A DNA stretch of 46,274 nucleotides from Candidatus Saccharimonadota bacterium (lineage in GTDB: Bacteria > Patescibacteriota > Saccharimonadia > Saccharimonadales > UBA10212), in NCBI GenBank assembly GCA_016234585.1, contig JACRBB010000031.1, forward strand, positions 1 to 46,274, written 5' to 3'. The notes under the pieces were generated by a model that saw only the letters and a list, made by a program, of their open reading frames with translations, was not told the origin of the DNA and ran no database searches. Shown piece after piece: positions 4,270-25,634 of the stretch. The position numbers were made by a program, and so were the translations under genes. Numbering within the stretch: position 1 is the stretch's first letter; the number at the start of each line of letters is the position of its first letter.

Positions 4270-5565
4270 CTAAATTGTTTCCTGATTGCCCATGTAGGGC
4301 CTTAGAACTTCCGGAATTTTAATATTACCATCAGCGATCTGGTAGTTTTCTATGATGGCAACCATTGTGCGGCCCATAGCAAAAGCTGTGGCATCGTTGG
4401 TATGGACAAGCTTTGTGCCCTCTGTTGTTTTTACACGGGTGTTCATGCCACGGGCCTGGAAGTCAGTAATAAAATCAGCCGTGTGAGTCTCCACATATTT
4501 ATTTTGGCCCGGGAGCCAGGTATTTATGTCCATACCACGGGCATTAGGAAAACCAATGTCCGCCGTACACTTGTTAAGAAGCTGATAAGGCAATTTGAGT
4601 TGTTGCATCAAGTACTCCTGCACGGCCACCATAAAGTGGTGCTCTTTCAGGCCGTCTTCCGGCTTGGTAAAGCTTTCCATCTCCAGCTTATCGAACTGAT
4701 GTTGCCGGATTATACCCTCCATGTCTTTGCCGTAGGTACCAGCTTCACGACGAAAAGCAGTGGTGTAACCGACATACCTAAGCGGCATCTCAGAATCGTC
4801 CAAAATTTCGTTTAGGTACATCGGTGCCAGGGTGTGTTCGGCGCTGGCATTCAGCCAAAGATCATCATCTTCGAGTTTATAGGTCTGCTCTTCTTTGTTG
4901 AGCCGGCCGGTTGCTTGGTACACCTCCGTGCGCGCTACTGCAGGCGGCAGCACCGGAACAAAGGCTTTAGATACAATATCAAGCCCGGCATCCTGAATAA
5001 TTTTTTTAACCGTTTCCTGACTAGTTAAGACGTCCAGACCGAACTGGATTATGGCGAACTGTAGTTTTACCAAATCGCCTTTTATGTAAGCAAAGCGGCT
5101 GCCGGCCACTTTGGCCGCCCGTTCTTTATCAATCAGTCCCCGACTCTCGGCAATCTGCCAGTGGGTCTTTGGTTCAAAATCAAACTTTGGCTTTTCGCCC
5201 CACTCTTTGGTAACTACGTTTTCGGCTTCGGACGCTCCAACTGGAACATCATCACTCGGCACATTAGGCACGGCATTTAACTGTTTTTCAAATTCCTCTT
5301 CCAGGGGTTTTAACCGGGCTTCACAATCGGTTAAGTGATCTTTTAGGTGCTTTCCTTTTTCTACCATCTCCGGTAAGGGTTTTTGACCTTTGGCTTGTTC
5401 GGCCAGTTCATTACGCTGGGCCCGAACCGTTTCTATATCGGCCAGCATCTCCCGCCGCCTCTTATCCAGCTCCAAAAGTTTCGGGATATCAACCTCGTAG
5501 CCCTTTTGTTTGGACTTCTCGGCAACCAGCTCGGCATTCTCCCGGATAAAACGGATATCTAGCAT
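4270..5565 (-). CDS. serS: Seryl-tRNA synthetase
   Basis: 431 aa. N-terminal coiled-coil arm, then class II core motifs (TTAFRREAGTYG, GRTMVAIIENYQ). Confidence 0.93.
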   Translation of the reverse strand: MLDIRFIRENAELVAEKSKQKGYEVDIPKLLELDKRRREMLADIETVRAQRNELAEQAKGQKPLPEMVEKGKHLKDHLTDCEARLKPLEEEFEKQLNAVPNVPSDDVPVGASEAENVVTKEWGEKPKFDFEPKTHWQIAESRGLIDKERAAKVAGSRFAYIKGDLVKLQFAIIQFGLDVLTSQETVKKIIQDAGLDIVSKAFVPVLPPAVARTEVYQATGRLNKEEQTYKLEDDDLWLNASAEHTLAPMYLNEILDDSEMPLRYVGYTTAFRREAGTYGKDMEGIIRQHQFDKLEMESFTKPEDGLKEHHFMVAVQEYLMQQLKLPYQLLNKCTADIGFPNARGMDINTWLPGQNKYVETHTADFITDFQARGMNTRVKTTEGTKLVHTNDATAFAMGRTMVAIIENYQIADGNIKIPEVLRPYMGNQETI

Positions 5566-6156: not shown

Positions 6157-6930
6157 TTAGCGCTTTCGCTTCCTGTTTCGCAACGAAGTAATGGTCAGCT
6201 CGGTACGGGACCTGGCATAGGCACAGTATTCGCAGTCGGCGGCCTCTTTGGGCATATCGTCGGACTCCAGACAATCCTTAATCTTCCGCAACGTCGGTTC
6301 CACCCATTTATCACTGCCCTTGTACGGAAAAACGTTGGTTCTAAATTCTACCTTATTAAAGAAGCCCTCGCCTTTGGCGATACCATTGGCATAAACAAAG
6401 TAGCCGGTGTCGCTGACTTTGTGGCCTTCACCCCTAAGCAACCATTGGTAAACTTCCATTTGCCGTCGGTAAGCATCGTGCCACTTGGAGTCTTCCAAAT
6501 CAGTAATTTCTTTGTTTTTAGCGGTGGCCTTGTAGTCTACCACAACCAGTTCGCCCTTGGGTGTCTCCCAAACGTCGTCCACCCCGCCAAAGATCAAAAA
6601 ATTGGTCGGTTTATGAAGGTGTTGCACTCCAGTAAACGTGTGGCGCCATCTGTTTAGGTGAGCGTGTTTGAACGGCTTGGCGTCTATTTTAAATTCTATC
6701 TGCCAGGGGTGCTGCTGGCCTTTTTCGCGGTAAGTATCAAACTCTGTTTTAAGCAGTTCGTCCACAGCGCTGTTGATCAAAAACGGTGGCATGCTGGGCT
6801 GGCCAATGCCAAGCCGTCTATCCAGCCAGAAACATCTGGAACACCTTATAAAGTTCTCTATCTTGCTGCGGCTTAGTTTGTACGCAGTTTTTTGGCCGGG
6901 CTGATAGCTCGGCGATCTCTCATATGCCAT
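6157..6930 (-). CDS. PD-(D/E)XK nuclease, Cas4/RecB-like with Cys cluster
   Basis: VVVDYKATAK (D-x-K core). N-terminal CSRC plus C-terminal C-x13-C-x2-C (DCLES…ADCEYCAY), as in Cas4-type Fe-S nucleases. Confidence 0.6.
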   Translation of the reverse strand: MAYERSPSYQPGQKTAYKLSRSKIENFIRCSRCFWLDRRLGIGQPSMPPFLINSAVDELLKTEFDTYREKGQQHPWQIEFKIDAKPFKHAHLNRWRHTFTGVQHLHKPTNFLIFGGVDDVWETPKGELVVVDYKATAKNKEITDLEDSKWHDAYRRQMEVYQWLLRGEGHKVSDTGYFVYANGIAKGEGFFNKVEFRTNVFPYKGSDKWVEPTLRKIKDCLESDDMPKEAADCEYCAYARSRTELTITSLRNRKRKR

Positions 6931-6957
6931 TACTGTCTATTGTAGCAGTACCGGTTG

Positions 6958-7512
6958 CTACAGGCTTATTGAAGGAGTATCGGTCTGTGAAGACGACCCA
7001 CTGTTATCCAGGCATTTATAGTAAGCATCCAGTGATGTGTAGTCTAGGCAATTTGAACTATCGGATATGTAAGGTTTTACGGTCTGACAGTTTTGACCTT
7101 TTTTGTGAGTGTAGAGCATATAGCTATCAAAATAGTCACCCTGCGTATCACCGGGAGCACTACCCCTCCCCGTTGTTGAATCCGAACCGTACAAAGCCCC
7201 GGTGAATAAGGACGCCCAGCCTGCGTCATAACCGTCACTAGCCCCTGAGAAAGTGGCACAAAGTTTATATTTACTGGAACTTAGCTTTGTGTAAGTTATA
7301 GTGCTTGGCACGTCTTTGATACCAGCGGCAGCTAAGTCACTAGGGATAGTATTTTTTTGACTTATGTAATTGTCTAGCTTGGTTGATATCGACCCGGCTT
7401 TATCAAGAGTATCCTTATCTGTCTTGGCACTTTTGGCTTGACTTAGAGTTATAACTAGCAGGCCAATGGCTCCGAACATCAAAAGCATCAAGCCGATGTA
7501 ATATTTTTTCAT
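6958..7512 (-). CDS. Hypothetical membrane-anchored/secreted protein (4 Cys in the C-terminal half)
   Basis: N-terminal hydrophobic anchor MKKYYIGLMLLMFGAIGLLVITL. No recognised domain. Tight spacing to the upstream gene on the same strand. Confidence 0.6.
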   Translation of the reverse strand: MKKYYIGLMLLMFGAIGLLVITLSQAKSAKTDKDTLDKAGSISTKLDNYISQKNTIPSDLAAAGIKDVPSTITYTKLSSSKYKLCATFSGASDGYDAGWASLFTGALYGSDSTTGRGSAPGDTQGDYFDSYMLYTHKKGQNCQTVKPYISDSSNCLDYTSLDAYYKCLDNSGSSSQTDTPSISL

Positions 7513-7530
7513 AATCTACAGTTTAGATTA

Positions 7531-8172
7531 CTAATTCTTACCCTTCATAGCGCGGTGCTCGTCAAACCAATAGTATGCCAGTACCCCACCGGCGATAATT
7601 AAAACTACAGCCAGATCGGCAATGGTTTTACCGACAGACGTATCCGAGTTACCGCTAACTTTTCGCAAAACAATATAAGCGAATACAGACAAATTGATAA
7701 GGCACGTCACAAAGGCCAGTAACTGCGTGATTTGCGACCACCTACGCTTTGACGGATCCACTCTCAGGGACGGGTTGGATAACTCAGCGCTGCGTAGTCT
7801 TATGAAAAGTAGTCCGAAAATCGGCAAAGAAGTTATTAAGGCTGACACCGGCGCTATTAGAAGATCGAAGGACGTGCCGGAGTTAATTAGGTTGAGTAAC
7901 GCCCAGGCCATCGCCGCGGCTGACGTCCAAAGAGCTATAGTCATCATGGCGTATTCCACGCCGTGAATGCTAAGTACCTTGACTACTGGAACCGGCAAAC
8001 TAGTGTCCGAGGTACCAAGCCTTGGCTCTAGTTTTTCAGTTGGCTCAACTGCCTCTGGTGGCAAAGGTGGTGACCAGGCCGGGTTAGAATGGGTCTGAAA
8101 CTGATGCGGCTGCGGCGCGAGTGATGGGTCGGGCGCAGAACTGATTGGTTGATATGGATCATTTGGTGGCAT
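7531..8172 (-). CDS. Hypothetical multi-pass membrane protein with Pro-rich N-terminus
   Basis: 213 aa. About 60 aa of Pro-rich N-terminus, followed by about 4 hydrophobic segments. No recognised family. Confidence 0.6.
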   Translation of the reverse strand: MPPNDPYQPISSAPDPSLAPQPHQFQTHSNPAWSPPLPPEAVEPTEKLEPRLGTSDTSLPVPVVKVLSIHGVEYAMMTIALWTSAAAMAWALLNLINSGTSFDLLIAPVSALITSLPIFGLLFIRLRSAELSNPSLRVDPSKRRWSQITQLLAFVTCLINLSVFAYIVLRKVSGNSDTSVGKTIADLAVVLIIAGGVLAYYWFDEHRAMKGKN

Positions 8173-8247
8173 AATTTGATACCCTGCCCTTATTACTTTA
8201 GCTGGATATTAGCATAAGCGCTAAGCAAAAACAAAGAACTTTTTAAG

Positions 8248-8352
8248 CTAACCGGCTAACCACACGGCCAGAGCTGAAACCGCTGCTAAAAATATCGCGA
8301 TAACTATGACTATGATTGAAACACTTTTGGGAGTCGGTTGCGGTTTTGGCAT
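8248..8352 (-). CDS. Candidate 34-aa single-pass membrane micropeptide (not in the ORF track)
   Basis: Hand translation gives MPKPQPTPKSVSIIVIVIAIFLAAVSALAVWLAG*. The ATG lies 4 nt after the heliorhodopsin stop. GAGG (CCTC at 8363-8366 on the + strand) sits about 10 nt upstream of the ATG. Confidence 0.4.
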   Translation of the reverse strand: MPKPQPTPKSVSIIVIVIAIFLAAVSALAVWLAG

Positions 8353-8356
8353 AAGT

Positions 8357-9190
8357 TTAAGGCCTCAAGCTGCCAGCGAATATTTGCCAAGCCAAAGCGC
8401 TTTTGGCAACCAGGCTTAGGATGATATAAACTCGCTCGCCGTATAAATAATTGCTCCAACGGCCGACTTTTTTGTACTGCAGGTACATATTAATCGCAAA
8501 ACTACTGAATAAAATGAACAGGCTGCCATAAATAAAGTACACAAAAGTTGGTATGCCACTGCCATAAATAACCGCGTCTTTTACATAAACGGCCACTACC
8601 AGCCACGGGATTATACCGGCCAGGATTCCCAGCAAGTAACTTAGCCAGCTGGTCTTTTTGGTGGTCTGATTGTGGACTTCCATGACAAGACCCAACAGAC
8701 TCATCACAGCCACCAGACCAAAAATCATAAACAGGCTGGAAAAATCAAAGATACCCGACAGCAATCCAATGCCAACCATCATGGTACTGGCTGAAAAAGC
8801 GTATTCTATCCAGCGGGCCCGATTAATTCCTATCCGCAAGTCTTTTACATATTTCTTGTAATAGTTATTCGCTACCAACCAATGGGCGATGGCGCTTATG
8901 AAGAAAAAGGCCGCGACTAAGTAGGCCAGCTTAAGGTCGAACAAATGATGGGTGGCGCTGACCAAAACCGGATGCCCAACTGCTTCGCTGGCAAGTTTGT
9001 CTTGAGTCAGGTAGCTAGTGGTTATGGGTTCTATACCGCGGGCCGGGTCGGCCAAAATTAAAACCGCTACACCTTGTAAGGCGTGCAAAGCGGCCGCGGC
9101 CAAGTTCATTTTGCGCAAGTTGACGTAGGTTATTTTTGGACCGGTAAAATCTTTTAAAGAAAATCGATTTTTAGTTGCTGACATGGCCAA
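8357..9190 (-). CDS. Heliorhodopsin (7-TM retinal protein, inverted topology family)
   Basis: The C-terminal stretch RWSNYLYGERVYIILSLVAKSALAWQIFAGSL is nearly identical to heliorhodopsin 48C12 as I recall it (KWSNYLRGERAYIVLSLVAKSALAWQIFSGTL). Schiff-base Lys is present (K263 in LVAKSAL). Counterion Glu is present (E129 in RWIEYAFSAS). Both conserved His are present (H36 in AALHALQ, H103 in AIAHWLV). Confidence 0.88.
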   Translation of the reverse strand: MAMSATKNRFSLKDFTGPKITYVNLRKMNLAAAALHALQGVAVLILADPARGIEPITTSYLTQDKLASEAVGHPVLVSATHHLFDLKLAYLVAAFFFISAIAHWLVANNYYKKYVKDLRIGINRARWIEYAFSASTMMVGIGLLSGIFDFSSLFMIFGLVAVMSLLGLVMEVHNQTTKKTSWLSYLLGILAGIIPWLVVAVYVKDAVIYGSGIPTFVYFIYGSLFILFSSFAINMYLQYKKVGRWSNYLYGERVYIILSLVAKSALAWQIFAGSLRP

Positions 9191-9209
9191 ATCATATCAT
9201 AAAACTTAA

Positions 9210-9587
9210 CTATTTCTTGCGTTCCAGGTGGTGAATACGTTTATGATCAAGCCCGTAGTAATGGGCGACTTCGTGCCAGATGGTGTGACGGATCTGCTCT
9301 TTGGCTTCAGAAATTGACGAGCTGATAGCTAGGATAGGATTTTTAAAAATCGTAATTTTATCGGGCAGTAGTTTGGTTGCGCCGCTCCTGCCCGGCAGCG
9401 GAACACCCTCGTATAAACCAAATAATGTCTGGTTGCAAGCCAAGCCAAGTTCGAGCCGCTGTTTAGGCGTGGGAAAGTCCTCCACTATGAACGCCACATT
9501 CTGCAAATGCTTCTGATAAAGTGGTGGGATAGCATCAATGCCATCGCTCACCATCTGCTCAAATTGCTGGTCGCTAACTTTTAACAC
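9210..9587 (-). CDS. Small zincin-like metallopeptidase family protein (Zincin_1/DUF1025-like)
   Basis: 125 aa with an HExxH motif near the C-terminus (TIWHEVAHYYGLDH). Confidence 0.65.
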   Translation of the reverse strand: MLKVSDQQFEQMVSDGIDAIPPLYQKHLQNVAFIVEDFPTPKQRLELGLACNQTLFGLYEGVPLPGRSGATKLLPDKITIFKNPILAISSSISEAKEQIRHTIWHEVAHYYGLDHKRIHHLERKK

Positions 9588-9633
9588 TGTTTTGCCATTA
9601 TAGCGTGTCAGCGCTTGGTAAACACCAATTAAA

Positions 9634-10833
9634 TTAGGCAGCTACGAACGTTAGAGCGTAACCGGTCTTACCGGCTCGGCCGGCTCGGCCAATGCGGTGG
9701 CTGTAGTCGTCGTAAGTCTTGGGCACATCAAAATTAATCACATGAGTGATATCAGTCACATCTATGCCGCGAGCGGCTACATCGGTCGCCACCAACACGC
9801 TAACTCGGCCCTCACGGAAGCCATCCAAAGCACGTTGGCGTTGCCCCTGGCTTTTGCCGCCGTGCAAAGCATCGGCCTTAAAACCGCGGGCTACCAGCTC
9901 TTTGGCTAGTCGCTCCACACCGTACTTGGTATCGCCAAAAATCAGTGTCTTACCGATTCTCTCGCCGATTAGTACATCATGCAAACGGTCTAGTTTTTCT
10001 GTCTTACCGTCGTAAGCCACAATGTCCTGGTGGACGTTGTCACTGGTGTCACCGGCTTTTACGTTGATAGTTATGGCGTCGTGCGTGAACGTTTTAATTA
10101 GGTCGTTGACTCCGGGGCTTAAAGTCGCTGAAAAGAAGAACGACTGGCGGTTAGCCGGAAGCAGATCCAGCAAAAAACGTACATCTGGCAAAAAGCCCAT
10201 ATCCAACATGCGGTCTACCTCGTCCAGTACCACCATCGTGCAGCCGCTAAGTCGCAATGTGCCCTGGCCTACATGATCCTTAATACGGCCCGGCGTGCCG
10301 ATTATGATGCGCGGGTGATTTTTTAGAGCGTTAACCTGGCGGCCCATAGGCAACCCGCCAATCAGCAGCGCGCCGGATAGTCCGCTGTTTTTAGCGAACT
10401 GCCGGCACTGTTCTTCAATCTGGATAGCCAGTTCGCGGGTCGGCGCGATAATCAGACCCATAGCATCCCGGTCGTGCAGCAATTTATTGAGTATCGGCAG
10501 AGCGAACGCGGCCGTCTTACCAGTACCGGTATTAGCTACGCCCACAACGTCTTTGCCTTCTAGGCCTAAGGCGATGGTCTTATCTTGGATTTCGGAAGGG
10601 CTTTTGTAGCCTTTAATGGCCACATTACTTTTTAAAATCGGGTGGATAGCAAAATCATTGAAGCTGTGTTGCGATTTATAATCGCTAACTAGCGCCGGGT
10701 TGGCTGTTTTAACAAAACGACTAGGGTGAATGGTTTGCTTAACTCCCCGGTTTCTGCCGCTTGAGCGGGTATTGGGGCTAAAATGGCGCGTGCCTGGGCG
10801 ACGCGGACCATGGTTGCGTGAATTTTGGTGCAT
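9634..10833 (-). CDS. DEAD-box ATP-dependent RNA helicase
   Basis: Motif I ANTGTGKTAAF, motif II as DEVD (VLDEVDRMLDMGF), SAT, ARGIDV and HRIGRAGRAG. Basic Arg/Gly-rich N-terminus. Confidence 0.92.
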   Translation of the reverse strand: MHQNSRNHGPRRPGTRHFSPNTRSSGRNRGVKQTIHPSRFVKTANPALVSDYKSQHSFNDFAIHPILKSNVAIKGYKSPSEIQDKTIALGLEGKDVVGVANTGTGKTAAFALPILNKLLHDRDAMGLIIAPTRELAIQIEEQCRQFAKNSGLSGALLIGGLPMGRQVNALKNHPRIIIGTPGRIKDHVGQGTLRLSGCTMVVLDEVDRMLDMGFLPDVRFLLDLLPANRQSFFFSATLSPGVNDLIKTFTHDAITINVKAGDTSDNVHQDIVAYDGKTEKLDRLHDVLIGERIGKTLIFGDTKYGVERLAKELVARGFKADALHGGKSQGQRQRALDGFREGRVSVLVATDVAARGIDVTDITHVINFDVPKTYDDYSHRIGRAGRAGKTGYALTFVAA

Positions 10834-10933
10834 AAAAAAGAATCCTTTGGTTTATTTGATTTAACTCGTTGCCTCGTAATGAAGCCTGGGTTAAACGGTC
10901 AATAAACCTGGATTCATCTCGAACAATGTGTTT

Positions 10934-10963
10934 ATTGTAGCATAAGCCTTATTTTTTGTCCAA
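10934..10963 (-). promoter_or_regulatory. Putative sigma70-type promoter for the DEAD-box helicase gene
   Basis: The minus strand reads TTGGAC, an 18-nt spacer, then TACAAT, about 100 nt upstream of the helicase ATG. This implies a long 5' UTR. Confidence 0.35.
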
Positions 10964-11052
10964 TTAAAAGACCGGGTAGTGGCTTTTGACGATATCGGAG
11001 CATACCGACTTTAAGCTTTCATCCAAATTATCGCAAAGTTGAACAGAATATA

Positions 11053-11550
11053 TTAAACCGCCTGGTACGGTACGTGGCACATGCCACGGCCCGTCCGCTC
11101 AGTGTACTTTTGGTGATAATCCTCCGCCGGCCAAAAAGTACCGGCAGGCTCCAGGGTTGTGACAATTGGTTTTTTAAATTGGCCCGAGCTGTTTAACTCG
11201 TCAATCATCTTTTGTGCGACCTTTTTTTGATTCTCATCGGCATAAAAAATAGCCGAGCGATAACTGTCACCGATATCCGGGCCTTGGCGATTCAGTTGCG
11301 TGGGGTCATGCATTCTAAAAAACTGCTTTAGAAGCGTCTCGTAATTGATTATCTTAGAGTCGTAAGTGATTTGGACGGCCTCGGCGTGGCCGGTTGTATG
11401 TGTACAGACGGCTTCATAGCTGGGGTGGTCAACATGTCCGCCCGTATAGCCCACAACTGTTTTTATAACGCCGGGCACTTGGTCAAAATAGTACTGTACT
11501 CCCCAAAAACAGCCGGCGGCAAAAATTGCGGTTCGTATATTACTGTCCAT
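11053..11550 (-). CDS. msrA: Peptide-methionine (S)-S-oxide reductase
   Basis: GCFWG active-site motif (FAAGCFWGVQYYF). 165 aa. Confidence 0.93.
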   Translation of the reverse strand: MDSNIRTAIFAAGCFWGVQYYFDQVPGVIKTVVGYTGGHVDHPSYEAVCTHTTGHAEAVQITYDSKIINYETLLKQFFRMHDPTQLNRQGPDIGDSYRSAIFYADENQKKVAQKMIDELNSSGQFKKPIVTTLEPAGTFWPAEDYHQKYTERTGRGMCHVPYQAV

Positions 11551-11551
11551 A

Positions 11552-12355
11552 CTACGAACTTATTAAATCACGGCGTCTGAAAGCAATCCAAGACACCACA
11601 CCGCACAAAGCGATTACGCCCACTATAAATAACATGTTGAGCCAATTATAGTTGCCCTCCAGTATTTCAGCCGGGTGATAATAAGCAAACGGGAAAACTT
11701 TGCTTGGCCCGCTAAGCCACGACACGTTACTAGCCAGCGAAGTCAGCAGGTAGCCGGCTAGTGCGACCAGCGAAGACAGACCTACGCTGGCTACTCGGGC
11801 GCTACGCCCAAGCATAGTAATCATAAAGGCCACTGAGCCAAAACTAATAGCCAAAACGGTCGAAGCAACACCAGCCAGCATGATATTACCAAAGGGTATC
11901 GGCAGGTCCACTAACTTAGACATGACGGCCGTCGCCAGCCCGCCAACCAGACCAACCACAGCAATAATAAATATGCCGGTAACCGCCTTGGCGGCCATAA
12001 GTCTACTGCGTGAAATCGGCCTGCTAAGCAACAACTCCAATGTGCCTTCCCTCTCCTCGCGCCCAACCAGTGATGCCCCCGCGCCGATGGCCAAGATACC
12101 AAGCAACATCGGCATCAGTAGGTAAAATACCTGACCACTCAGATAGCCGACCGGTGAAAAGAAGTCGCCAGTATCAGAAAATAAAGCGATGGCGCTATCT
12201 GAAAGGCTGGAAAAAGATTTTTCCAGCTCCGCCGCTTGGTCACGGATGGACGGATAGAACGCCAGTTCAAGTACAACGTAGGCGATAATCCCCAGTATCC
12301 ACCATAAAATCGAAAGCCGACGGGCCTGAACCGTCCACTTAATAATCGGCTTCAT
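11552..12355 (-). CDS. ABC-2 type transporter permease
   Basis: 267 aa with about 6 hydrophobic segments. Start overlaps the stop of the upstream ABC ATPase by 4 nt. Confidence 0.75.
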   Translation of the reverse strand: MKPIIKWTVQARRLSILWWILGIIAYVVLELAFYPSIRDQAAELEKSFSSLSDSAIALFSDTGDFFSPVGYLSGQVFYLLMPMLLGILAIGAGASLVGREEREGTLELLLSRPISRSRLMAAKAVTGIFIIAVVGLVGGLATAVMSKLVDLPIPFGNIMLAGVASTVLAISFGSVAFMITMLGRSARVASVGLSSLVALAGYLLTSLASNVSWLSGPSKVFPFAYYHPAEILEGNYNWLNMLFIVGVIALCGVVSWIAFRRRDLISS

Positions 12356-14040: not shown

Positions 14041-15570
14041 CTAGGCTTCAAGACGAAGACGTTTAACCAACCAATCGCGCGGCAAGATAGACAAAAACCA
14101 GCCCGCCCGCGGCCCTGATTCCTGGCCGATAAGCGCCCTGTATAACGGCTCGAATATTTCCTTGGGCTGCAGACCAAATTCGTCTTTCAAGTCGTAAATG
14201 GTTTTATGGAACCATTCACCATCGGCGTCGTTTGGAGCCGCGGCAATTTCATCTGCCAATCTTACCAGGTAAGCCCTCTCTGTTTCACTGAATCCAGCCG
14301 CTTCAACTGACTTGGCCAGCTCAAATTTAACCTCGTCGGGGGCCCATTTTTGGAGCCATTGCTCAATAAATACCAGCTGTTTTTCAATGATAGCTTTTTG
14401 TGATTCTTCAATCGGTCTTTCTTCTGTACGCCCGATTATTTCTAAAGTCTTGGCCGGGTCTTTCAGAGCAGCCTGGTAACTGGACACTAGGTGAGAAAAC
14501 GGAACACTGCTAACAGTCGATTGAATACCATGGCCGGAAAGCTCGATAAGCTGCTCATCGGCCTTTGTCTTTTCGGTCTTAGCAAGAAGTTCAGCGTATT
14601 CATCTATCAGTCGGACTACTCCTCCCTGGGGATCAAAAAATAGCTGTTTTGCTGGCGGATAACGCAGGATAAAATACCGGGCTACCTCTGGGGGCAAAAC
14701 TGTTACAACTTCGCTCATCAAGATACCATTACCCTTGCTGGCGCTCATTTTTTTAGTATCACCGGCGCGATTTACAAAGTCGTAAGGTATTGGCAGTGGC
14801 GCTGGCGCGTCAAAGACTTCTTTCATCAGCGCAGCCCCGGTGTCATAGCTACCGCCTTTGGTACCGTGGTCGCGGCCAAACGGTTCAACGTTCACGCCCA
14901 TCAGCCACCAGCGCGACGGCCAATCCAGCCGCCAGTTCAGCTTAACTTCACCAGCGCTATAATCAGTGACTTGTTCCGCGTCACTGGGGTCTAGATAGGT
15001 AATTTTTTTAGCGGCTACGTCTATCGATACAAAGCGACGGTTTTTTAAGTAGCCATCCTCATTAACCTGAATTGGCGCCCAGTCTTTTTCCAGCTGGCGG
15101 CCAGATACTTCCTCGAGCACCTTGCGGACTTTAGGTAAGTCTTGCAGGGTTTTTTCAATTGCCTTTGTGAAAAACCCGGCACGGTACCTTTCATGGCTAC
15201 GAATTACATCAATTTCAATTCCCAATTTAGCTACGCTATCTAAAAAATCCTTAAGAGCATAATCGGCATAGGACTGACCAGAGCCGTCTGGAGCTGGCAT
15301 ATCACAAAGCGGCTTACCCAAGTATTTCTCATATCCAGGTGGCAGGCCAGCCGGTACTTTTCTAAAGCCGTCCAGATCGTCTACGAAATGTATGTGGCGA
15401 GCCTGATGCCCCCGCCGCTGAAGCTCTAACTTGACGGCGTCACAAGTGATAATCTCCCGTAAATACCCCATGTGATAGCTGCCCGAAGGCGAGATACCGG
15501 ATTCAATAATAATCTCGCCCTGCGGATGGCGGGCGATAATCTCATCAATAATTTTATTCAACCACTGCAT
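14041..15570 (-). CDS. lysK: Lysyl-tRNA synthetase, class I type
   Basis: SPSGSYHMGYLRE (HIGH-like) and KMSASKG (KMSKS-like). The 509-aa length and architecture fit class I LysRS, not the class II LysS. Confidence 0.88.
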   Translation of the reverse strand: MQWLNKIIDEIIARHPQGEIIIESGISPSGSYHMGYLREIITCDAVKLELQRRGHQARHIHFVDDLDGFRKVPAGLPPGYEKYLGKPLCDMPAPDGSGQSYADYALKDFLDSVAKLGIEIDVIRSHERYRAGFFTKAIEKTLQDLPKVRKVLEEVSGRQLEKDWAPIQVNEDGYLKNRRFVSIDVAAKKITYLDPSDAEQVTDYSAGEVKLNWRLDWPSRWWLMGVNVEPFGRDHGTKGGSYDTGAALMKEVFDAPAPLPIPYDFVNRAGDTKKMSASKGNGILMSEVVTVLPPEVARYFILRYPPAKQLFFDPQGGVVRLIDEYAELLAKTEKTKADEQLIELSGHGIQSTVSSVPFSHLVSSYQAALKDPAKTLEIIGRTEERPIEESQKAIIEKQLVFIEQWLQKWAPDEVKFELAKSVEAAGFSETERAYLVRLADEIAAAPNDADGEWFHKTIYDLKDEFGLQPKEIFEPLYRALIGQESGPRAGWFLSILPRDWLVKRLRLEA

Positions 15571-20563: not shown

Positions 20564-20643
20564 AATCATTTGTGTTACACCTGAGAAGATGAGTTTTATA
20601 GGTGTAGCGTGCTCGTTCAAAATTCGAGTTCCAAAAGGGAGGT

Positions 20644-22407
20644 GTGGGCTTGTCCCGCAAACCGCCAAACCGCAACTATGCCACACTGATCGGCCCCCTG
20701 ACCAAGCCACCCAGTAGGGATATGCCCTACCGGGTGCAGTACAAGAAGATGCCCACCAGTGGTGGCTTCGGCGACACCCTGATTACCCGAATCCTGGGAA
20801 TCGGCGTGCCACTGACGATGGCCTACGTCATCTACCTGCTTTTCCGGCCGGAAAACTGGCCTGTGGGTACGATGGGCAAGGTCATCACCGGCTTCGGGCT
20901 GGCCATCGCCCTGATGACGACCCTGGAGGTCTTCGCAGTTGGCCGGGCATCGCGTCTGGCCAAGTGTCCCATTCCGGTCGAACCGCAGAAGGGACATCGC
21001 GTCTGTTTCTTTACCTGCTTCGTGCCCTCCTCAGAGGACATTCACAGGCTGGAAGAGACGCTGCTGGGCATGCTCGCCCAGACGTACCATCAGATCGGAG
21101 TGGTACACATCTACGTCCTGGACGAAGGCGATTCGGATGAAGTCAAGGCACTCTGCCACAAGTTGGGTGTCGGGCACTTCAGCCGCAAGAATCGCTCCTT
21201 CCACGCCATGAGCGCGTTCAAGAACAAGTTCATGCTCCGGACCAAGTATGGCAACATCAACAGCTTCATCGCTTGGCTGAACAACGAGGACCTGCACTTC
21301 GACTTCTTCGCCGGAGTCGACTGCGACCACATCCCCAAGCCGGTATTCATCGAGAGGATGATCGGCTGGTTCCGTGATGGGAACGTGGGAGCAGTCGTGG
21401 GACCACAGACGTACGAGAACGCGTCCCCGAGCAACGCCCTTTACAGCCTGGTGGCGCGATTCGCAGAGTCGTGCCAGTTCATCTTCCACAGCGTGCTGCA
21501 GCCGGCCGGCAATCGTGCCGGATCGCCGCTGTTCGTGGGAACGAACTTCATGATCCGGGCCAGTGCCCTGAAGCAAATCGATGGCATCCAGCCGTCGGTT
21601 ACCGAAGACGCACTGACCAGTCTGGCTCTCAGCACGGCCGGCTGGAAGATCGTCTGCACTCTGGACGAACTCGCGGTGGGGCTTGGGCCTGCCACCTGGC
21701 GTGACATGTTCAAGCAGCAGCACCGCTGGAGCCTGGGCACGAATCAGATCGTGTTCCATCAGCCACGCCTGTTCCTTGGGCTTGGTTGGCGGCGCTTCTG
21801 GCACTACACGCTGATGATGAGCTACTACCCCACGGTGGCAGCCATCTTCATCCTGGGAGTGTCCAGCTGTGTCCTGTACAGCACCACCGGTACGGCCGGT
21901 CTGCGTGTGCCAATCCTCACGTGGGGAGCGCTGTACTTCGACATCCTGCTGGCCCAGATCTTCCTGTTCACCTGGAACAGGCGGCACAACGTCAGCTCCA
22001 TGGAGCCTCCGAACTCCTCGGGCTTCAGCGGACTGTTGATGGCCAGCATGTGTGCGCCCATCTACCTCGTGGCCTTCTTCCAGGCCTGGAAAGATCCGAA
22101 CAAGAACTCCAACTTCAACATCACGCCCAAGGGCAAGAAGGTCGTCAAGGACAACCTGTTGGTGTTCACAAACCACTTGATCTGGTCGGCTGTGCTGGCC
22201 GGATCGATCGCTACGGCATTCGTTTCGGGCCACACCAGCCCGTTCATGCTGATCTGGCAGTTCGTGACTCTCGGCGTCTGCGTCGGGCCGTTGGTCATCT
22301 GGCAAATCGACGCCAGAAGGAAGCATCCCAACCCATCCGGCAACCTCGAGGCACAGACCTACACCGTTCCCGACGGTGTAGGCGAAAGGGCCTCGCAGAG
22401 CATTTAG
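20644..22407 (+). CDS. cslA: Processive GT2 beta-glycan synthase, cellulose-synthase-like (CslA-like), no PilZ domain
   Basis: GT2 processive motifs are in order: VLDEGDSDE, GVDCDH (DxD), TEDALTS (TED), QQHRWSLG (QxxRW). N- and C-terminal TM bundles are present. The SD AAGGGAGG ends 1 nt before the GTG at 20644, so the in-frame TTG at 20650 is the more likely start. The segment is GC-rich. Confidence 0.85.
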   Translation: MGLSRKPPNRNYATLIGPLTKPPSRDMPYRVQYKKMPTSGGFGDTLITRILGIGVPLTMAYVIYLLFRPENWPVGTMGKVITGFGLAIALMTTLEVFAVGRASRLAKCPIPVEPQKGHRVCFFTCFVPSSEDIHRLEETLLGMLAQTYHQIGVVHIYVLDEGDSDEVKALCHKLGVGHFSRKNRSFHAMSAFKNKFMLRTKYGNINSFIAWLNNEDLHFDFFAGVDCDHIPKPVFIERMIGWFRDGNVGAVVGPQTYENASPSNALYSLVARFAESCQFIFHSVLQPAGNRAGSPLFVGTNFMIRASALKQIDGIQPSVTEDALTSLALSTAGWKIVCTLDELAVGLGPATWRDMFKQQHRWSLGTNQIVFHQPRLFLGLGWRRFWHYTLMMSYYPTVAAIFILGVSSCVLYSTTGTAGLRVPILTWGALYFDILLAQIFLFTWNRRHNVSSMEPPNSSGFSGLLMASMCAPIYLVAFFQAWKDPNKNSNFNITPKGKKVVKDNLLVFTNHLIWSAVLAGSIATAFVSGHTSPFMLIWQFVTLGVCVGPLVIWQIDARRKHPNPSGNLEAQTYTVPDGVGERASQSI

Positions 22408-22413
22408 AAGGAG

Positions 22414-24432
22414 GTGAAAACCTTGAGTGATGTAGTTTTGAGTGACGAGAGATCAGATCGCTCAACCAGGAGCGGGTCGTTCTGGCGGTGGTTCCTGATC
22501 ATGATCGCCATGATTTCGGCGGTCATGATGGCGGGCTACATAACCATCTGGGCTAACCTCGGTCGCGAACCTATCGCAGCCGCCCAGCACGGATGGCATG
22601 AGCACGTCATCAACAGCCACAGCTACACGGTCAAAAACGGCCAGTGGAACACCCCGGATCAGCCGGCTAGCCAAAAGCTAGACGACATCCATACCGCCCT
22701 GCTGAAGACCGGAAAGGTCTTCATGCTAGCGGGAAGCGGCAACAACATCAACCACTCCCACCACGAGGTCTACCAGGCCGGCATCTATGACCCGGAAACG
22801 GGTCAGACCAAGGTCCTGCGCATTCCGAACGATATGTTCTGCGCCGGCATCACCACGCTCAGCGACGGACAGTTGCTGATCGCTGGCGGCACTTCGCACT
22901 ACGAGGTGCTAAAGACCGAGGTCCAGTACGCCGGTGGCGTCATGACCATCAAGAACGAGTCGCCCGACAGCGGCACGTTCGTTCTGCCCAAGGGAACCGA
23001 GCTACGTTCACCCGGTGGCAGGTTGTACCGAACCCGGGACAGCCTTCGGGTTGACCCAGCCACCAAACAAGTGGGTCCCCGGGGAGCAGTTACGATTACG
23101 GCTTCCTCGCAGGACACGTGGGTGGATGCGGAGGCGAAAGGCGCGTCCTCGGTTTCGACCGACACGCACATCACCTACACCGTCGTTAGCGGGCTTCCCC
23201 CGGAAATTCAGTCCAACAACGTCTACGGCGTGTCTTCTTCTACCGGCCTGACGCTCGACAAGCAGGAGTTCGCGGGAGCGAGCTTCAGCTACCTGTTCGA
23301 CCCCTCGGTCGAGCAATTCACCAAGGTCGACAACCTGAAGTTCGCCCGGTGGTATCCAACCACCATCACCCTGCCCAGCGGTCGGGTTCTGGCGATTTCG
23401 GGACTGGACCAGTTTGGCCGGATCCTGCAGGGCTTCAACGAGGTATACGACCAGGTGACGCAGAAGTGGACGCTTCTGCCTCACACCAAGCTCTTCCCCA
23501 CCTACCCGGCAATGTTCGTTACCGAAAGGCCCAATACCCTGCTCTACACCGGCGGCAGCGCCGGTTACGGCAGCGACAAGATCGGCCGATCACCGGGACT
23601 CTGGAATTGGCAGACCAACGCCTTCCAAGCAATTCCCGGTTTGCGTGACAGCAACATGACGGAGACCAGTGATTCGCTTCTGCTGCCTCCGGCTAACGCC
23701 CAGCGCTACATGATCGCCGGTGGTGGTGGGGTGGGTAACTCCGAGAAGTCCACAAGCAGGACCGACATCGTCGACCTGAAGGATTCTCACCCACGCTTCA
23801 CTCCGGGTCCCGATCTGCTGACGAAGCTGCGGTACATGATTGGCACAATCCTACCGGACAACACCGTGCTCTTCAGCGGTGGCACCGCCGGTTATCGTGC
23901 CAACGGCAACAGTTACACGCACATGGCCGCCATCTACGACCCGGCCACGAACATAATGCGGCGGGTAGCTGACTCGCGCATCGGCCGCACATACCACAGC
24001 TCGGCAGTTCTGCTGCCGGACGGCTCAGTCTTCACAGCCGGCGGCGACCCGTTGTACAGCGACGCTGCCGGTAAAATCCCCGGCAGTTTCGAGCAGCGGA
24101 TCGAGATCTACAAGCCGCCCTACATGTTCCAGGGAGAAAGGCCGGTCATCATCGACGGTCCCAGCGAACTGGTGCGTGGGCAGTCTGCGGAGCTGTCGGT
24201 CTCAGCAGACCAAAAGATCACGGGTGCGCGCCTGCTTCGGCTGGGCGTCTCCACCCACACCACGGATAACGCCCAGCGTTCTGTCGAGCTGAAAATTCAG
24301 CATGACGGGACAGGAAAGCTCGGCGTCACCCTGCCCAAGAGCGGCAGATTGCTCATGGGCGGTTGGTACATGTTGTTCGTGTCCAACCAGGACGGTGTGC
24401 CTTCAGTGGCACGCATGGTCCACGTTGCGTAG
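22414..24432 (+). CDS. glxA: Membrane-anchored radical copper oxidase, galactose/glyoxal-oxidase-like (GlxA-like), kelch propeller plus DUF1929-like C-terminal domain
   Basis: N-terminal TM anchor (FWRWFLIMIAMISAVMMAGYITIW). All galactose-oxidase cofactor and ligand positions are recognisable: Cys in MFCAGITTLSDGQ, Tyr in ARWYPTTITLPSGR, Tyr-His in RTYHSSAVLLPDGSVF, His in STHTTDNAQR. The SD GAAGGAGG overlaps the GTG at 22414, so the in-frame TTG at 22423 is the likely start. Confidence 0.85.
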   Translation: MKTLSDVVLSDERSDRSTRSGSFWRWFLIMIAMISAVMMAGYITIWANLGREPIAAAQHGWHEHVINSHSYTVKNGQWNTPDQPASQKLDDIHTALLKTGKVFMLAGSGNNINHSHHEVYQAGIYDPETGQTKVLRIPNDMFCAGITTLSDGQLLIAGGTSHYEVLKTEVQYAGGVMTIKNESPDSGTFVLPKGTELRSPGGRLYRTRDSLRVDPATKQVGPRGAVTITASSQDTWVDAEAKGASSVSTDTHITYTVVSGLPPEIQSNNVYGVSSSTGLTLDKQEFAGASFSYLFDPSVEQFTKVDNLKFARWYPTTITLPSGRVLAISGLDQFGRILQGFNEVYDQVTQKWTLLPHTKLFPTYPAMFVTERPNTLLYTGGSAGYGSDKIGRSPGLWNWQTNAFQAIPGLRDSNMTETSDSLLLPPANAQRYMIAGGGGVGNSEKSTSRTDIVDLKDSHPRFTPGPDLLTKLRYMIGTILPDNTVLFSGGTAGYRANGNSYTHMAAIYDPATNIMRRVADSRIGRTYHSSAVLLPDGSVFTAGGDPLYSDAAGKIPGSFEQRIEIYKPPYMFQGERPVIIDGPSELVRGQSAELSVSADQKITGARLLRLGVSTHTTDNAQRSVELKIQHDGTGKLGVTLPKSGRLLMGGWYMLFVSNQDGVPSVARMVHVA

Positions 24433-24457
24433 CGTCCGATAAGGACATGCGCGGCAA

Positions 24458-24492
24458 GCACCCCCAAGCCATGATGGCGAGGGGGTGTTTTA
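24458..24492 (+). terminator. Rho-independent terminator after the glxA-like gene
   Basis: CACCCCC (24459-24465) pairs with GGGGGTG (24481-24487). There is an inner GCCA/TGGC stem. TTTT follows at 24488-24491. Confidence 0.6.
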
Positions 24493-24532
24493 AATTTATC
24501 AAAGGTAATTTTGGACTCATTATAAAAGCACC

Positions 24533-24583
24533 CCCGGTGCGAACGGCCATCCATGGCCACTCGCACTCGGGGGTTATCCGGTC
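24533..24583 (-). terminator. Rho-independent terminator after the GH6 gene (potentially bidirectional)
   Basis: 12-bp stem with one bulge: CCCCCGGTGCGA (24541-24552) pairs with TCGCACTCGGGGG (24571-24583). There is an inner GGCCAT/ATGGCC stem. On the minus strand it is followed by TGCTTTTAT. Confidence 0.55.
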
Positions 24584-24592
24584 CCATATGCT

Positions 24593-25573
24593 TTAGGATC
24601 CGGTTAGCTGGCTAGCCAGCTTCGGCGACCAGACACCTGCCGGCTGGCTGATGCCGTGGCAAACACCATCACTATCCCCGGGCTGTTTCACCCAGAGATA
24701 GGCGTCAACCAATGGTTGGTTGGTGCGGGTAGTCGGGCTGTCGCCCAACTTCTGCCCCGGCTGATTGCACCAGGGCTTACCGTCGTTGACCGGTGTTGGC
24801 CCAGCACCGTTCCGACTGGTGTCGATCACGAAGTGCTTGCCACCAAGCCGCTTGCTCACGGCCGTACCGTAGCGAATGCTGCGTGACGTGGTCTCGTAGT
24901 TCGCCACATTCAAGGCGAACCCGTCGGCCTCTGCCACACCGGCCTGCTTAAGTGCGTTCGCCAGCTGGGACGGATCGTCGATCCATCCAGCGTTACCCGC
25001 GTCGATGTAGACGTAGGCGTTGGACGCTCTCTTGAGCTTGCCGACCGCATAGGCCAGTAAGCTAAGATGCGCGTTGGCGTCCGTGCTGTGGCAGGCCTGA
25101 ATGGTCTGTGCCAGAGCATCCGGCTCCAGGATGATCACAACCGGGTCGTTGTTACTCATACCGACCGCGAATCGACGGATCCATGCGCGGTAGGCCGCCG
25201 GACTGGCTGCCCCTCCGGCCGATGACCCGCCGCAATCCCGGTCCGGGATATTGTAGGCCACCAGCACAGGCAGCTTGCCAAATGCCGCGACCGACTGAAC
25301 GTACTCGGCGATATCAGCCTCGAGGTACGGGTCCTTTCCGAACCACAGAGCTGACGGCTGACTGCCGATCACCTCGCGCTCCTTTGGCGTGCCGTGTGTC
25401 TGCCCATGATTTTGCGGGTCGACATACAGCTCGTAGCTGTTCAGTGGATTCGACGCGCCACTGGCACTCCTAGCGGTGGACGAACCGGAACCACCACAAC
25501 CAACAACGATCAGCGCGGTGGCGGCCATCGCCGCCACCATGGCAGCGATTGTTAGCCGTCGTACATAACTCAT
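24593..25573 (-). CDS. cslZ: Glycoside hydrolase family 6 beta-1,4-glucanase, lipoprotein (CslZ-like)
   Basis: Lipobox LIVVGC after a hydrophobic signal. GH6 blocks are present: YNIPDRDCGG, IILEPDALA, YIDAGNAGW, FALNVANY, VIDTSRNG, WCN and LWVKQPGDSDG. The segment is GC-rich. Confidence 0.88.
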   Translation of the reverse strand: MSYVRRLTIAAMVAAMAATALIVVGCGGSGSSTARSASGASNPLNSYELYVDPQNHGQTHGTPKEREVIGSQPSALWFGKDPYLEADIAEYVQSVAAFGKLPVLVAYNIPDRDCGGSSAGGAASPAAYRAWIRRFAVGMSNNDPVVIILEPDALAQTIQACHSTDANAHLSLLAYAVGKLKRASNAYVYIDAGNAGWIDDPSQLANALKQAGVAEADGFALNVANYETTSRSIRYGTAVSKRLGGKHFVIDTSRNGAGPTPVNDGKPWCNQPGQKLGDSPTTRTNQPLVDAYLWVKQPGDSDGVCHGISQPAGVWSPKLASQLTGS

Positions 25574-25634
25574 CAGACCTCACTTCGGTAGATGACGTGG
25601 GAGACTCGTTACATGCTAATTATATAATAATTAC

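Follow-up and report, generated by a model that had tools for sequence, protein, structure and literature searches.

A canonical heliorhodopsin gene at a conserved chromosomal slot in groundwater Saccharibacteria

A heliorhodopsin gene in a bacterium from groundwater raises the question of what the protein would do there, where its retinal would come from, and whether the genes beside it say anything about its role. We analyzed such a gene on contig JACRBB010000031.1; the window is the whole 46,274-bp contig, and the gene, here called HeR, lies on its reverse strand at 8357..9190. A first-pass annotation of the same DNA had described a 277-aa heliorhodopsin with the hallmark C-terminal helix of the family, and had hinted, from the neighboring genes, at a role in light or oxidative stress. 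The gene is genuine and intact, and its assignment to the heliorhodopsins is near certain; it is over the neighbors that our analysis departs from the annotation.

Read from a TTG at 9190 to the TAA stop at 8357-8359, HeR has 277 codons. An in-frame ATG lies two codons past the TTG, at 9184, and gives a protein of 275 aa; a 95%-identical homologue (P0001) is called at 275 aa, the length of HeR from this ATG, which is the more likely of the two starts. Residue numbers below (H36, H103, E129, K263) count from the TTG and are lower by 2 when counted from the ATG. The Pfam family PF18761 (Heliorhodopsin) matches the protein over its entire profile (positions 1-242 of 242; E 3.2e-85; 285.8 bits, cut-off 26.7), as does the NCBIfam equivalog NF038020, ‘heliorhodopsin HeR’ (positions 1-244 of 244; 294.5 bits, cut-off 100), through which the NCBI pipeline would name the protein automatically. 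The profile search that had been proposed as a check on the annotation therefore matched far above both curated cut-offs. The C-terminal string LSLVAKSALAWQIF is found in the open reading frame (ORF), and among solved structures sequence searches retrieved TaHeR (6is6, E 2.8e-65) and 48C12 (6su3, E 6e-47). A weak Pfam match to MauE (E 0.0017), whose 19 bits fall short of the cut-off of 27, was discounted as noise from hydrophobic helices. The HeR region is identical, with no differences, in a second assembly of the same groundwater run (depth ~5-7x), and tRNA and Rfam scans of the window found no RNA genes.

The photochemical residues were placed by a phmmer alignment to 6su3, carried to 48C12 numbering. 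The predicted retinal Schiff-base lysine, K263 (K261 from the ATG start; codon AAA, 8402..8404, on the reverse strand like all codons given here), corresponds to K241 of 48C12 and K238 of TaHeR, and the predicted Schiff-base counterion, E129 in the RWIEY motif (GAA, 8804..8806), to E107 of 48C12. The two histidines, H36 (CAC, 9083..9085) and H103 (CAT, 8882..8884), correspond to H23 and H80, and the SxxxK motif of helix 7 reads S259-L-V-A-K263, in which S259 (8414-8416, codon verified) is equivalent to S237. The lysine, the glutamate and the two histidines that the annotation had singled out are thus all in register with 48C12, with their codons verified, and the misalignment of lysine or glutamate that it had named as one way to overturn the call is not seen. 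Thirteen residues of 48C12 were named as structurally important by Kovalev 2020 (PMC7049168); 12 of them are identical in HeR, and the thirteenth, Q213, is replaced by M235, a substitution that the same study describes as a frequent variant.

An AlphaFold2 model of HeR, built from 28 clade sequences (mean predicted local distance difference test score 73, predicted TM-score 0.72), has seven long helices, encoded on the reverse strand at 9053-9127, 8870-8929, 8759-8821 and 8660-8743 (helices 1-4) and at 8564-8647, 8471-8548 and 8366-8449 (helices 5-7). A Foldseek search with this model returned only TaHeR and 48C12 structures among its top ten PDB entries (E 3e-12 to 5e-9), with TM-scores of 0.67-0.80 over both normalisations. 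Type-1 rhodopsins follow at E 2e-4 or worse and 9-16% identity (12% for the best one); HeR does not group with them, which would have been another way for the annotation to fail. The loops of the model carry 12 lysines and arginines on the N-terminal side versus 4 on the other side. Under the positive-inside rule this bias predicts the inverted orientation, with the N-terminus in the cytoplasm and the C-terminus outside, and so concurs with the topology suggested earlier. All sequence-level and model-level defining features of the family that we tested are present in HeR, and PF18761, NF038020, the fold search and the residue register agree on a full-length heliorhodopsin with its C-terminal hallmark helix.

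The host is a Candidatus Saccharibacteria (Saccharimonadia) cell from groundwater. The source run of the window is labelled groundwater metagenome, and the housekeeping genes in the window include those for SecA, SerRS, class-I LysRS, ProRS, GreA, RRF, EF-Ts, S2, RF1, PrmC and ParAB. HeR has 6,410 database relatives at E ≤1e-20, and those among the best that carry names belong to Candidatus Saccharibacteria, Saccharimonadales or Patescibacteria. A scan with one genome per species found a relative encoded in 515 genomes, the best 80 of which are almost all metagenome-assembled genomes of Saccharibacteria. The closest species-level relative, Saccharibacteria bacterium CG10_big_fil_rev_8_21_14_0_10_47_8 (locus L002), has a HeR that is 87% identical. 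A LytR-CpsA-Psr gene, with a Gram-positive-type envelope function, is present in the window, a sortase gene stands beside HeR in 16 related loci, and no outer-membrane family was matched among the ORFs of the 46-kb window. The first two of these features, together with the Saccharibacteria relatives, fit a monoderm host, consistent with the restriction of heliorhodopsins to monoderms (Bulzu 2021) that the annotation had mentioned.

For the supply of retinal, all 44 non-overlapping window ORFs of ≥70 aa were scanned with Pfam. None matched BCD/Blh, SQS_PSY, phytoene desaturase or lycopene cyclase, and none matched type-1 rhodopsin, which bears out the earlier statement that the window holds no carotenoid or retinal biosynthesis gene. 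A further scan took in the flanks of HeR in 81 related loci, covering the 116 genes up to four positions away that had no other classification. Among these, no family recurs in more than two members, and none of the 25 families listed is carotenoid- or retinal-related; families with a single member are mostly outside that listing (127), so the scan excludes only a recurrent blh-like neighbor. In rhodopsin-bearing Saccharibacteria no blh was found by Jaffe 2022 (PMC9296517), and the passage of that paper that cites Shihoya 2019 describes heliorhodopsin, in organisms without retinal synthesis, as taking up retinal fast via an opening in the apoprotein. That the host probably needs external retinal, as had been proposed, accords with this published retinal auxotrophy.

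Most of the positions around such an opening are conserved in HeR. With the fenestration site defined as in bioRxiv 10.1101/2025.11.27.691015, the lining stretch (8495..8638, reverse strand) contributes Y185, I189, G192, F228, S229 and A232, which are equivalent to F162, C166, G169, F206, N207 and A210 of 48C12. The aromatic pair Y185/F228, the glycine G192 and the small residue A232 are retained in HeR, and at least 80 of the 82 clade sequences conserve these positions. At the position of I189 the clade has mostly Cys, with Ile in 3/82.

Taken together, these results make a canonical heliorhodopsin that uses external retinal and, once activated by light, modulates a partner the probable account of the whole mechanism. 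As its sequence, fold and charge bias suggest, the seven-helix apoprotein would insert with its N-terminus in the cytoplasm. All-trans-retinal would then be held as a protonated Schiff base on K263, with E129 as counterion and with H36 and H103 in a proton-accepting cluster. Publications on TaHeR and on Saccharibacteria suggest that the organism would make no retinal of its own and would obtain the chromophore from its host or surroundings; entry would be by the lateral opening lined by Y185, G192, F228 and A232. On the model of characterised heliorhodopsins, light would isomerise the retinal and lead to a long-lived intermediate without net ion transport, and the activated HeR may then modulate a partner protein that the neighborhood does not reveal.

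Several points weigh against this account. Pigment formation, the photocycle, signalling, the lack of transport and the source of retinal would all carry over to HeR by analogy with characterised relatives and from the cited papers. The absence of blh and crt genes holds for the 46-kb window. Among the fenestration residues HeR departs from the solved heliorhodopsins twice, with Ile189 for Cys and Ser229 for the usual Asn. Beside HeR there is no histidine kinase, glutamine synthetase, photolyase, MerR or multidrug ABC partner, and none of the ten partner classes of PMC11109279 is adjacent to it. The source is groundwater, the closest species relative recurs in groundwater or aquifer runs, and a light-driven role is therefore not self-evident in the habitat; no RNA run that covers the gene was found. 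The core of the first-pass annotation (a heliorhodopsin, its residues in register, no retinal genes in the window, a monoderm host) nevertheless stands, with the family models, the fold search and the residue register in agreement.

The retained fenestration also bears on a variant in which HeR works with two chromophores, the second being an external xanthophyll antenna bound at the fenestration. This variant is compatible with the canonical mechanism, to which it adds a step, and a 2025 preprint (bioRxiv 10.1101/2025.11.27.691015) proposes such an antenna for most heliorhodopsins. The aromatic pair that defines the site, the correlated glycine and the small alanine are all present and kept across the clade as described above, and a monoderm host dependent on external lipids and pigments would suit the idea. 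The proposal is, however, based on structure comparison and docking, with no carotenoid-bound heliorhodopsin in the preprint; position 166 should be without a bulky side chain, yet is Ile in HeR, and Ser takes the place of the Asn to which positioning of the carotenoid is ascribed. As carotenoids are also likely to be scarce in an aquifer, we consider the antenna unlikely for HeR.

HeR is strongly constrained. The ratio of nonsynonymous to synonymous substitution rates (dN/dS) of HeR is 0.064 against the 95% relative and 0.062 against the 87% relative. The corresponding values are 0.057-0.067 for LysRS and 0.051-0.066 for GreA, and LysRS, GreA, PD-(D/E)XK and MsrA together span 0.03-0.09. Purifying selection on HeR is thus as strong as on housekeeping genes such as that for a tRNA synthetase. 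Across the clade, the Schiff-base lysine, the counterion glutamate and each histidine are found in 81/82 sequences, and the serine of the SxxxK motif in 82/82. The sole exception to the conservation of lysine, glutamate and histidines is the second copy at locus L021, where two heliorhodopsin genes lie in tandem (10001-10798 and 10861-11781). In this second copy (306 aa) the Schiff-base Lys is replaced by Arg and the counterion Glu by Asp, and neither histidine remains; it is a lysine-less paralogue.

These data speak to a second alternative, in which HeR has a light-independent role in dark aquifers, for example as a retinoid- or carotenoid-binding or a structural membrane protein, or is a retained relic. 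The groundwater label of the source run, the recurrence of the L002 locus in at least 20 groundwater or aquifer runs and the lack of an encoded retinal source in the window are all in its favor. A relic is contradicted by the dN/dS of 0.06, which is that of housekeeping genes, and the lysine, the counterion and both histidines are strict in the sub-lineage and near-universal in the clade, as selection for retinal photochemistry predicts. The same HeR clade is also found in lakes, rivers, soils and wastewater, judging by record titles. Moreover, groundwater is often sampled at wells, springs and geyser outflows, where cells may meet lit or surface-connected water. We hold a dark role to be improbable, and read the strong constraint in the aquifer lineage as continued selection for retinal photochemistry.

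Immediately after HeR lies a feature specific to this lineage. An ATG 4 nt past the HeR stop opens a micro-ORF (8248..8352, reverse strand) for a protein of 34 aa, MPKPQPTPKSVSIIVIVIAIFLAAVSALAVWLAG, whose N-terminus is rich in proline and whose single hydrophobic helix is predicted to span the membrane. Given this spacing, it is probably translated from the HeR transcript. The micro-ORF is found at the same place in three related loci, L001 (10833-10937, 85%), L002 (10807-10911, 79%) and L005 (~4536-4646, same architecture), with copies of 34-36 aa; none of the other 77 loci has it after HeR. Its substitutions fall at third codon positions in 10/16, 12/20 and 11/18 cases, its dN/dS is 0.13-0.21, and an exhaustive search of 1.84 billion protein representatives returned one relative, P0361 (79%, 34 aa). 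The micro-ORF looks like a real, lineage-specific micro-protein gene, whose product is a candidate small membrane partner of HeR. One could go further and suppose that in the groundwater sub-lineage HeR and the micro-protein form a two-gene unit, with the micro-protein as membrane partner or transducer, kept under strong purifying selection in aquifers. We entertain this version with little confidence; if true, it could mean a role independent of sunlight, in sensing or binding host-derived retinoids, or could instead mean a response to very brief or weak light.

Whether the larger neighborhood reveals a function was asked by calling and clustering ORFs in the window and in the fetched loci (81 loci). 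The genes next to HeR are those for Zincin_1, a DEAD-box helicase, the 34-aa micro-protein and a 213-aa membrane protein without a family. Upstream, the small metallopeptidase-like Zincin_1 gene (PF06262; 9210..9587, reverse strand; Pfam E 2.7e-25) ends 19-25 nt before the start of HeR, a gap short enough that the two genes probably share a transcription unit. Zincin_1 is a backbone neighbor in 18 of the 81 loci and is also kept without HeR in L083 and L085. The next gene, 46 nt upstream of Zincin_1, encodes a CshA/RhlE-like DEAD-box RNA helicase (9634..10833, reverse strand; Pfam DEAD and Helicase_C), whose score with the CshA-like NCBIfam model does not reach the equivalog cut-off. The HeR transcription unit probably begins with this gene. 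The best sigma-70-like promoter match of the region (TGGACA-17-TACAAT with extended TG, 10/12; 10934..10962, reverse strand), which is a consensus match only, lies ~100 nt upstream of the helicase start. Promoter-like sites in 6900-11700 number 8 versus 7.1 ± 2.9 in shuffles, and such sites are weak evidence; terminator-like counts in the same region show no excess over shuffles either. Because neither count exceeds the shuffles, the operon statement rests mainly on the short intergenic gaps. The MsrA gene (peptide methionine sulfoxide reductase; PF01625, E 3e-67) follows at 11053..11550 on the same strand, 219 nt from the helicase start. Both msrA and the helicase gene are therefore where the annotation had placed them, as neighbors of HeR.

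HeR itself is part of a conserved backbone. Upstream it reads ProRS - GreA - LysRS - [ABC transporter] - [DUF427] - [MsrA] - [sortase, opposite strand] - HeR, and downstream HeR - [HAD / TrmA-like / RsmE] - PD-(D/E)XK - SerRS - HPF - SecA - M16 peptidase; it is seen in 59 of the 69 loci with at least five upstream ORFs. A search with the window MsrA provided a control, for which six long contigs were picked regardless of HeR. All six keep MsrA at the same place after ProRS-GreA-LysRS, and three of them (L082, L083 and L085) are without HeR. In L085 the slot Zincin_1-[YggT]-PD-(D/E)XK is present but empty of HeR; in L084 the slot between Zincin_1 and PD-(D/E)XK is filled by a HeR (9609-10400) that is 35% identical to that of the window. 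In L086 a HeR with 46% identity (10391-11029) lies downstream of MsrA, the contig ending within the gene, and the contig of L087 is too short there to show whether HeR follows. One conserved slot, together with relatives that have the same backbone without HeR, argues for old vertical inheritance with repeated loss, and vertical inheritance at a fixed chromosomal slot is part of the best explanation for the gene. The MsrA proteins flanking HeR in L084 and L086 are 73-74% identical, compared with 35% and 46% for HeR itself; within the same backbone, HeR has either diverged quickly or been replaced in situ.

It is against this backbone that the hint of a light or oxidative stress module, joining HeR with MsrA, the DEAD-box helicase or both, has to be judged. 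Heliorhodopsins were linked to oxidative stress by Bulzu 2021 and Chiriac 2022, the helicase, Zincin_1 and HeR are closely spaced in the window (gaps of 46 and 19-25 nt) and a promoter-like site precedes the helicase, and in 34 of the 59 backbone loci MsrA is encoded on the strand of HeR no more than six genes upstream (directly upstream in 10). The helicase, however, neighbors HeR in only 3/81 loci. MsrA is separated from HeR by an opposite-strand gene, mostly a sortase, in 14 loci, and the two are therefore not co-transcribed there; of the ten loci in which HeR is not in the backbone, only one has MsrA nearby. Because MsrA stays put in the relatives without HeR (L082, L083 and L085), its proximity comes with the backbone and is no sign of a functional pairing. 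Our literature search found no paper pairing heliorhodopsin with methionine sulfoxide reductase, and Bulzu 2021 is without mention of methionine. We therefore do not consider MsrA part of any HeR module but a context gene of the backbone; the functional hint that the annotation took from msrA and the helicase does not hold up, and a stress module involving either gene is quite improbable.

An ABC-2 transporter pair 2.4 kb upstream of HeR, three genes away, was considered as a light-modulated transporter in the manner of OcHeR-OmrDE and rejected: the pair is non-adjacent, and it is a backbone element that persists in the HeR-less loci L082 and L085. Downstream, a family-less gene pair occupies 6958-8172 on the reverse strand and encodes the 213-aa membrane protein (Pro-rich N-terminus, 7531-8172) and a protein of 184 aa that has a single helix near its N-terminus. 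Both genes are found together at four loci (window, L002, L036 and L048), in differing positions relative to HeR; the absence of the pair from L001, the 95% relative, suggests a small cassette that is mobile or variable. The 213-aa protein was also considered as a cryptic retinal-forming enzyme and set aside, having only a sub-threshold DUF5671 match and occurring in 4 loci at varying positions. Two further observations concern the backbone itself. Some loci have a class-I enzyme in the LysRS slot upstream of HeR (window, 14041-15570, reverse strand; L001, L007 and others); in L010, L017, L019 and others a class-II enzyme stands there instead, an in-place swap of unrelated types. At the expected position in L002 (6809-7081), the MsrA frame is only 85-90 codons long, which may reflect a truncated gene or an assembly error.

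Both 48C12 and TaHeR are said to be without ion transport. That HeR is instead an ion transporter, a light-gated proton channel or pump like viral V2HeR3, is very improbable, since the proton transport reported for some viral heliorhodopsins (mentioned in PMC11109279 and PMC12873467) belongs to the viral-dominated subfamily 2, the most divergent and without the fenestration site, whereas HeR has that site and is nearest to TaHeR (44% identity) and 48C12 (38%).

Elsewhere in the window, the region 20600-25600 has a G+C content of 0.56-0.59, compared with ~0.47-0.49 around it. Here a cellulose-synthase-type glycosyltransferase of family 2 is encoded at 20644-22407, a radical copper oxidase resembling GlxA at 22414-24432 and, on the reverse strand, a GH6 glycoside hydrolase at 24593-25573, an arrangement known from the Streptomyces cslA-glxA-cslZ cluster. 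The closest matches to the GlxA-like protein, itself excluded, reach only ~50% identity; where they carry names, these are actinobacterial (Solirubrobacterales, Actinoplanes, Streptomyces and Pseudonocardia). The region has the look of an island acquired laterally from Actinobacteria, the phylum of known Saccharibacteria hosts. A 1,373-aa ORF at 42006-46127 (reverse strand), next to ParAB, has no Pfam match at E ≤0.1.

Heliorhodopsins of Saccharimonadia, the SLVAK motif, the missing retinal pathway and the oxidative-stress idea have all been published, and HeR as annotated is correct but ordinary. The modest additions made here are the one conserved slot with its HeR-less counterparts, the strong constraint despite an aphotic source, and the coupled micro-ORF. 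With HeR in one slot in at least 59 species-level genomes, synteny in this phylum confounds guesses at function from the neighborhood, MsrA above all. That aquifer populations carry an intact photoreceptor gene under strong constraint raises the question of where the light, and where the retinal, would come from. The lineage-specific micro-protein is a cheap candidate for a first interaction partner of HeR in bacteria of the Candidate Phyla Radiation (CPR).

Among known systems, the best solved relative is TaHeR of the Thermoplasmatales archaeon SG8-52-1 (6IS6, 7U55, 7CLJ), with ~44% identity and a TM-score of 0.72-0.80. Its H23, H82, E108, S234 and K238 have identical equivalents in HeR, its Y164 corresponds to Y185, so that both proteins have Tyr at the first fenestration aromatic, and its C-terminal helix is almost identical to that of HeR (YIILSLVAKSALAWQ). 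The owner of TaHeR is likewise without retinal synthesis, according to the passage in Jaffe 2022 that cites Shihoya 2019. The two differ in host, archaeal for TaHeR and bacterial for HeR, in the N-terminus, which is longer in HeR (residue 25 aligns to chain residue 18), in the loop between helices 1 and 2, which is ~8 residues longer in HeR, and at the fenestration, where TaHeR has Cys and Asn204 in place of I189 and S229. The founding member 48C12, from an actinobacterial fosmid (6SU3, 6SU4, 6UH3), is 36-38% identical to HeR, with the five photochemical residues in register; its Q213, F162, C166 and N207 are Met, Tyr, Ile and Ser in HeR, whose AB loop and N-terminus are also longer.

The SacR type-1 rhodopsins, proton pumps with a DTS motif (Jaffe 2022, PMC9296517), occur in the same phylum as HeR and likewise depend on external all-trans-retinal, taken up via an opening; they differ from HeR in family, in having the opposite membrane orientation, and in their pumping function. 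OcHeR acts with the multidrug ABC transporter OmrDE (PMC11109279); the same paper distinguishes ten groups of heliorhodopsin neighbors, including glutamine synthetase, photolyase, MerR, TerC and ABC transporters. The ABC-2 pair near HeR is no heterodimeric multidrug exporter, unlike OmrDE; as a general mode of action, however, the binding and modulation of a partner by a light-activated heliorhodopsin, as in OcHeR, is likely to apply to HeR as well.

The closest parallel is with the heliorhodopsins of Saccharimonadia, 80 of which were reported by Chiriac 2022 (Microbiome, PMC9166423), with SLVAK as a common motif, the most frequent one in CPR heliorhodopsins, and with speculation about a role in oxidative stress. 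These proteins are like HeR in family, host class, SLVAK motif, conserved chromosomal slot and the lack of a nearby retinal pathway, and hundreds of them are 56-95% identical to HeR. From the lake Saccharimonadia heliorhodopsins HeR differs in nothing essential; its sub-lineage comes from groundwater and carries the 34-aa micro-ORF.

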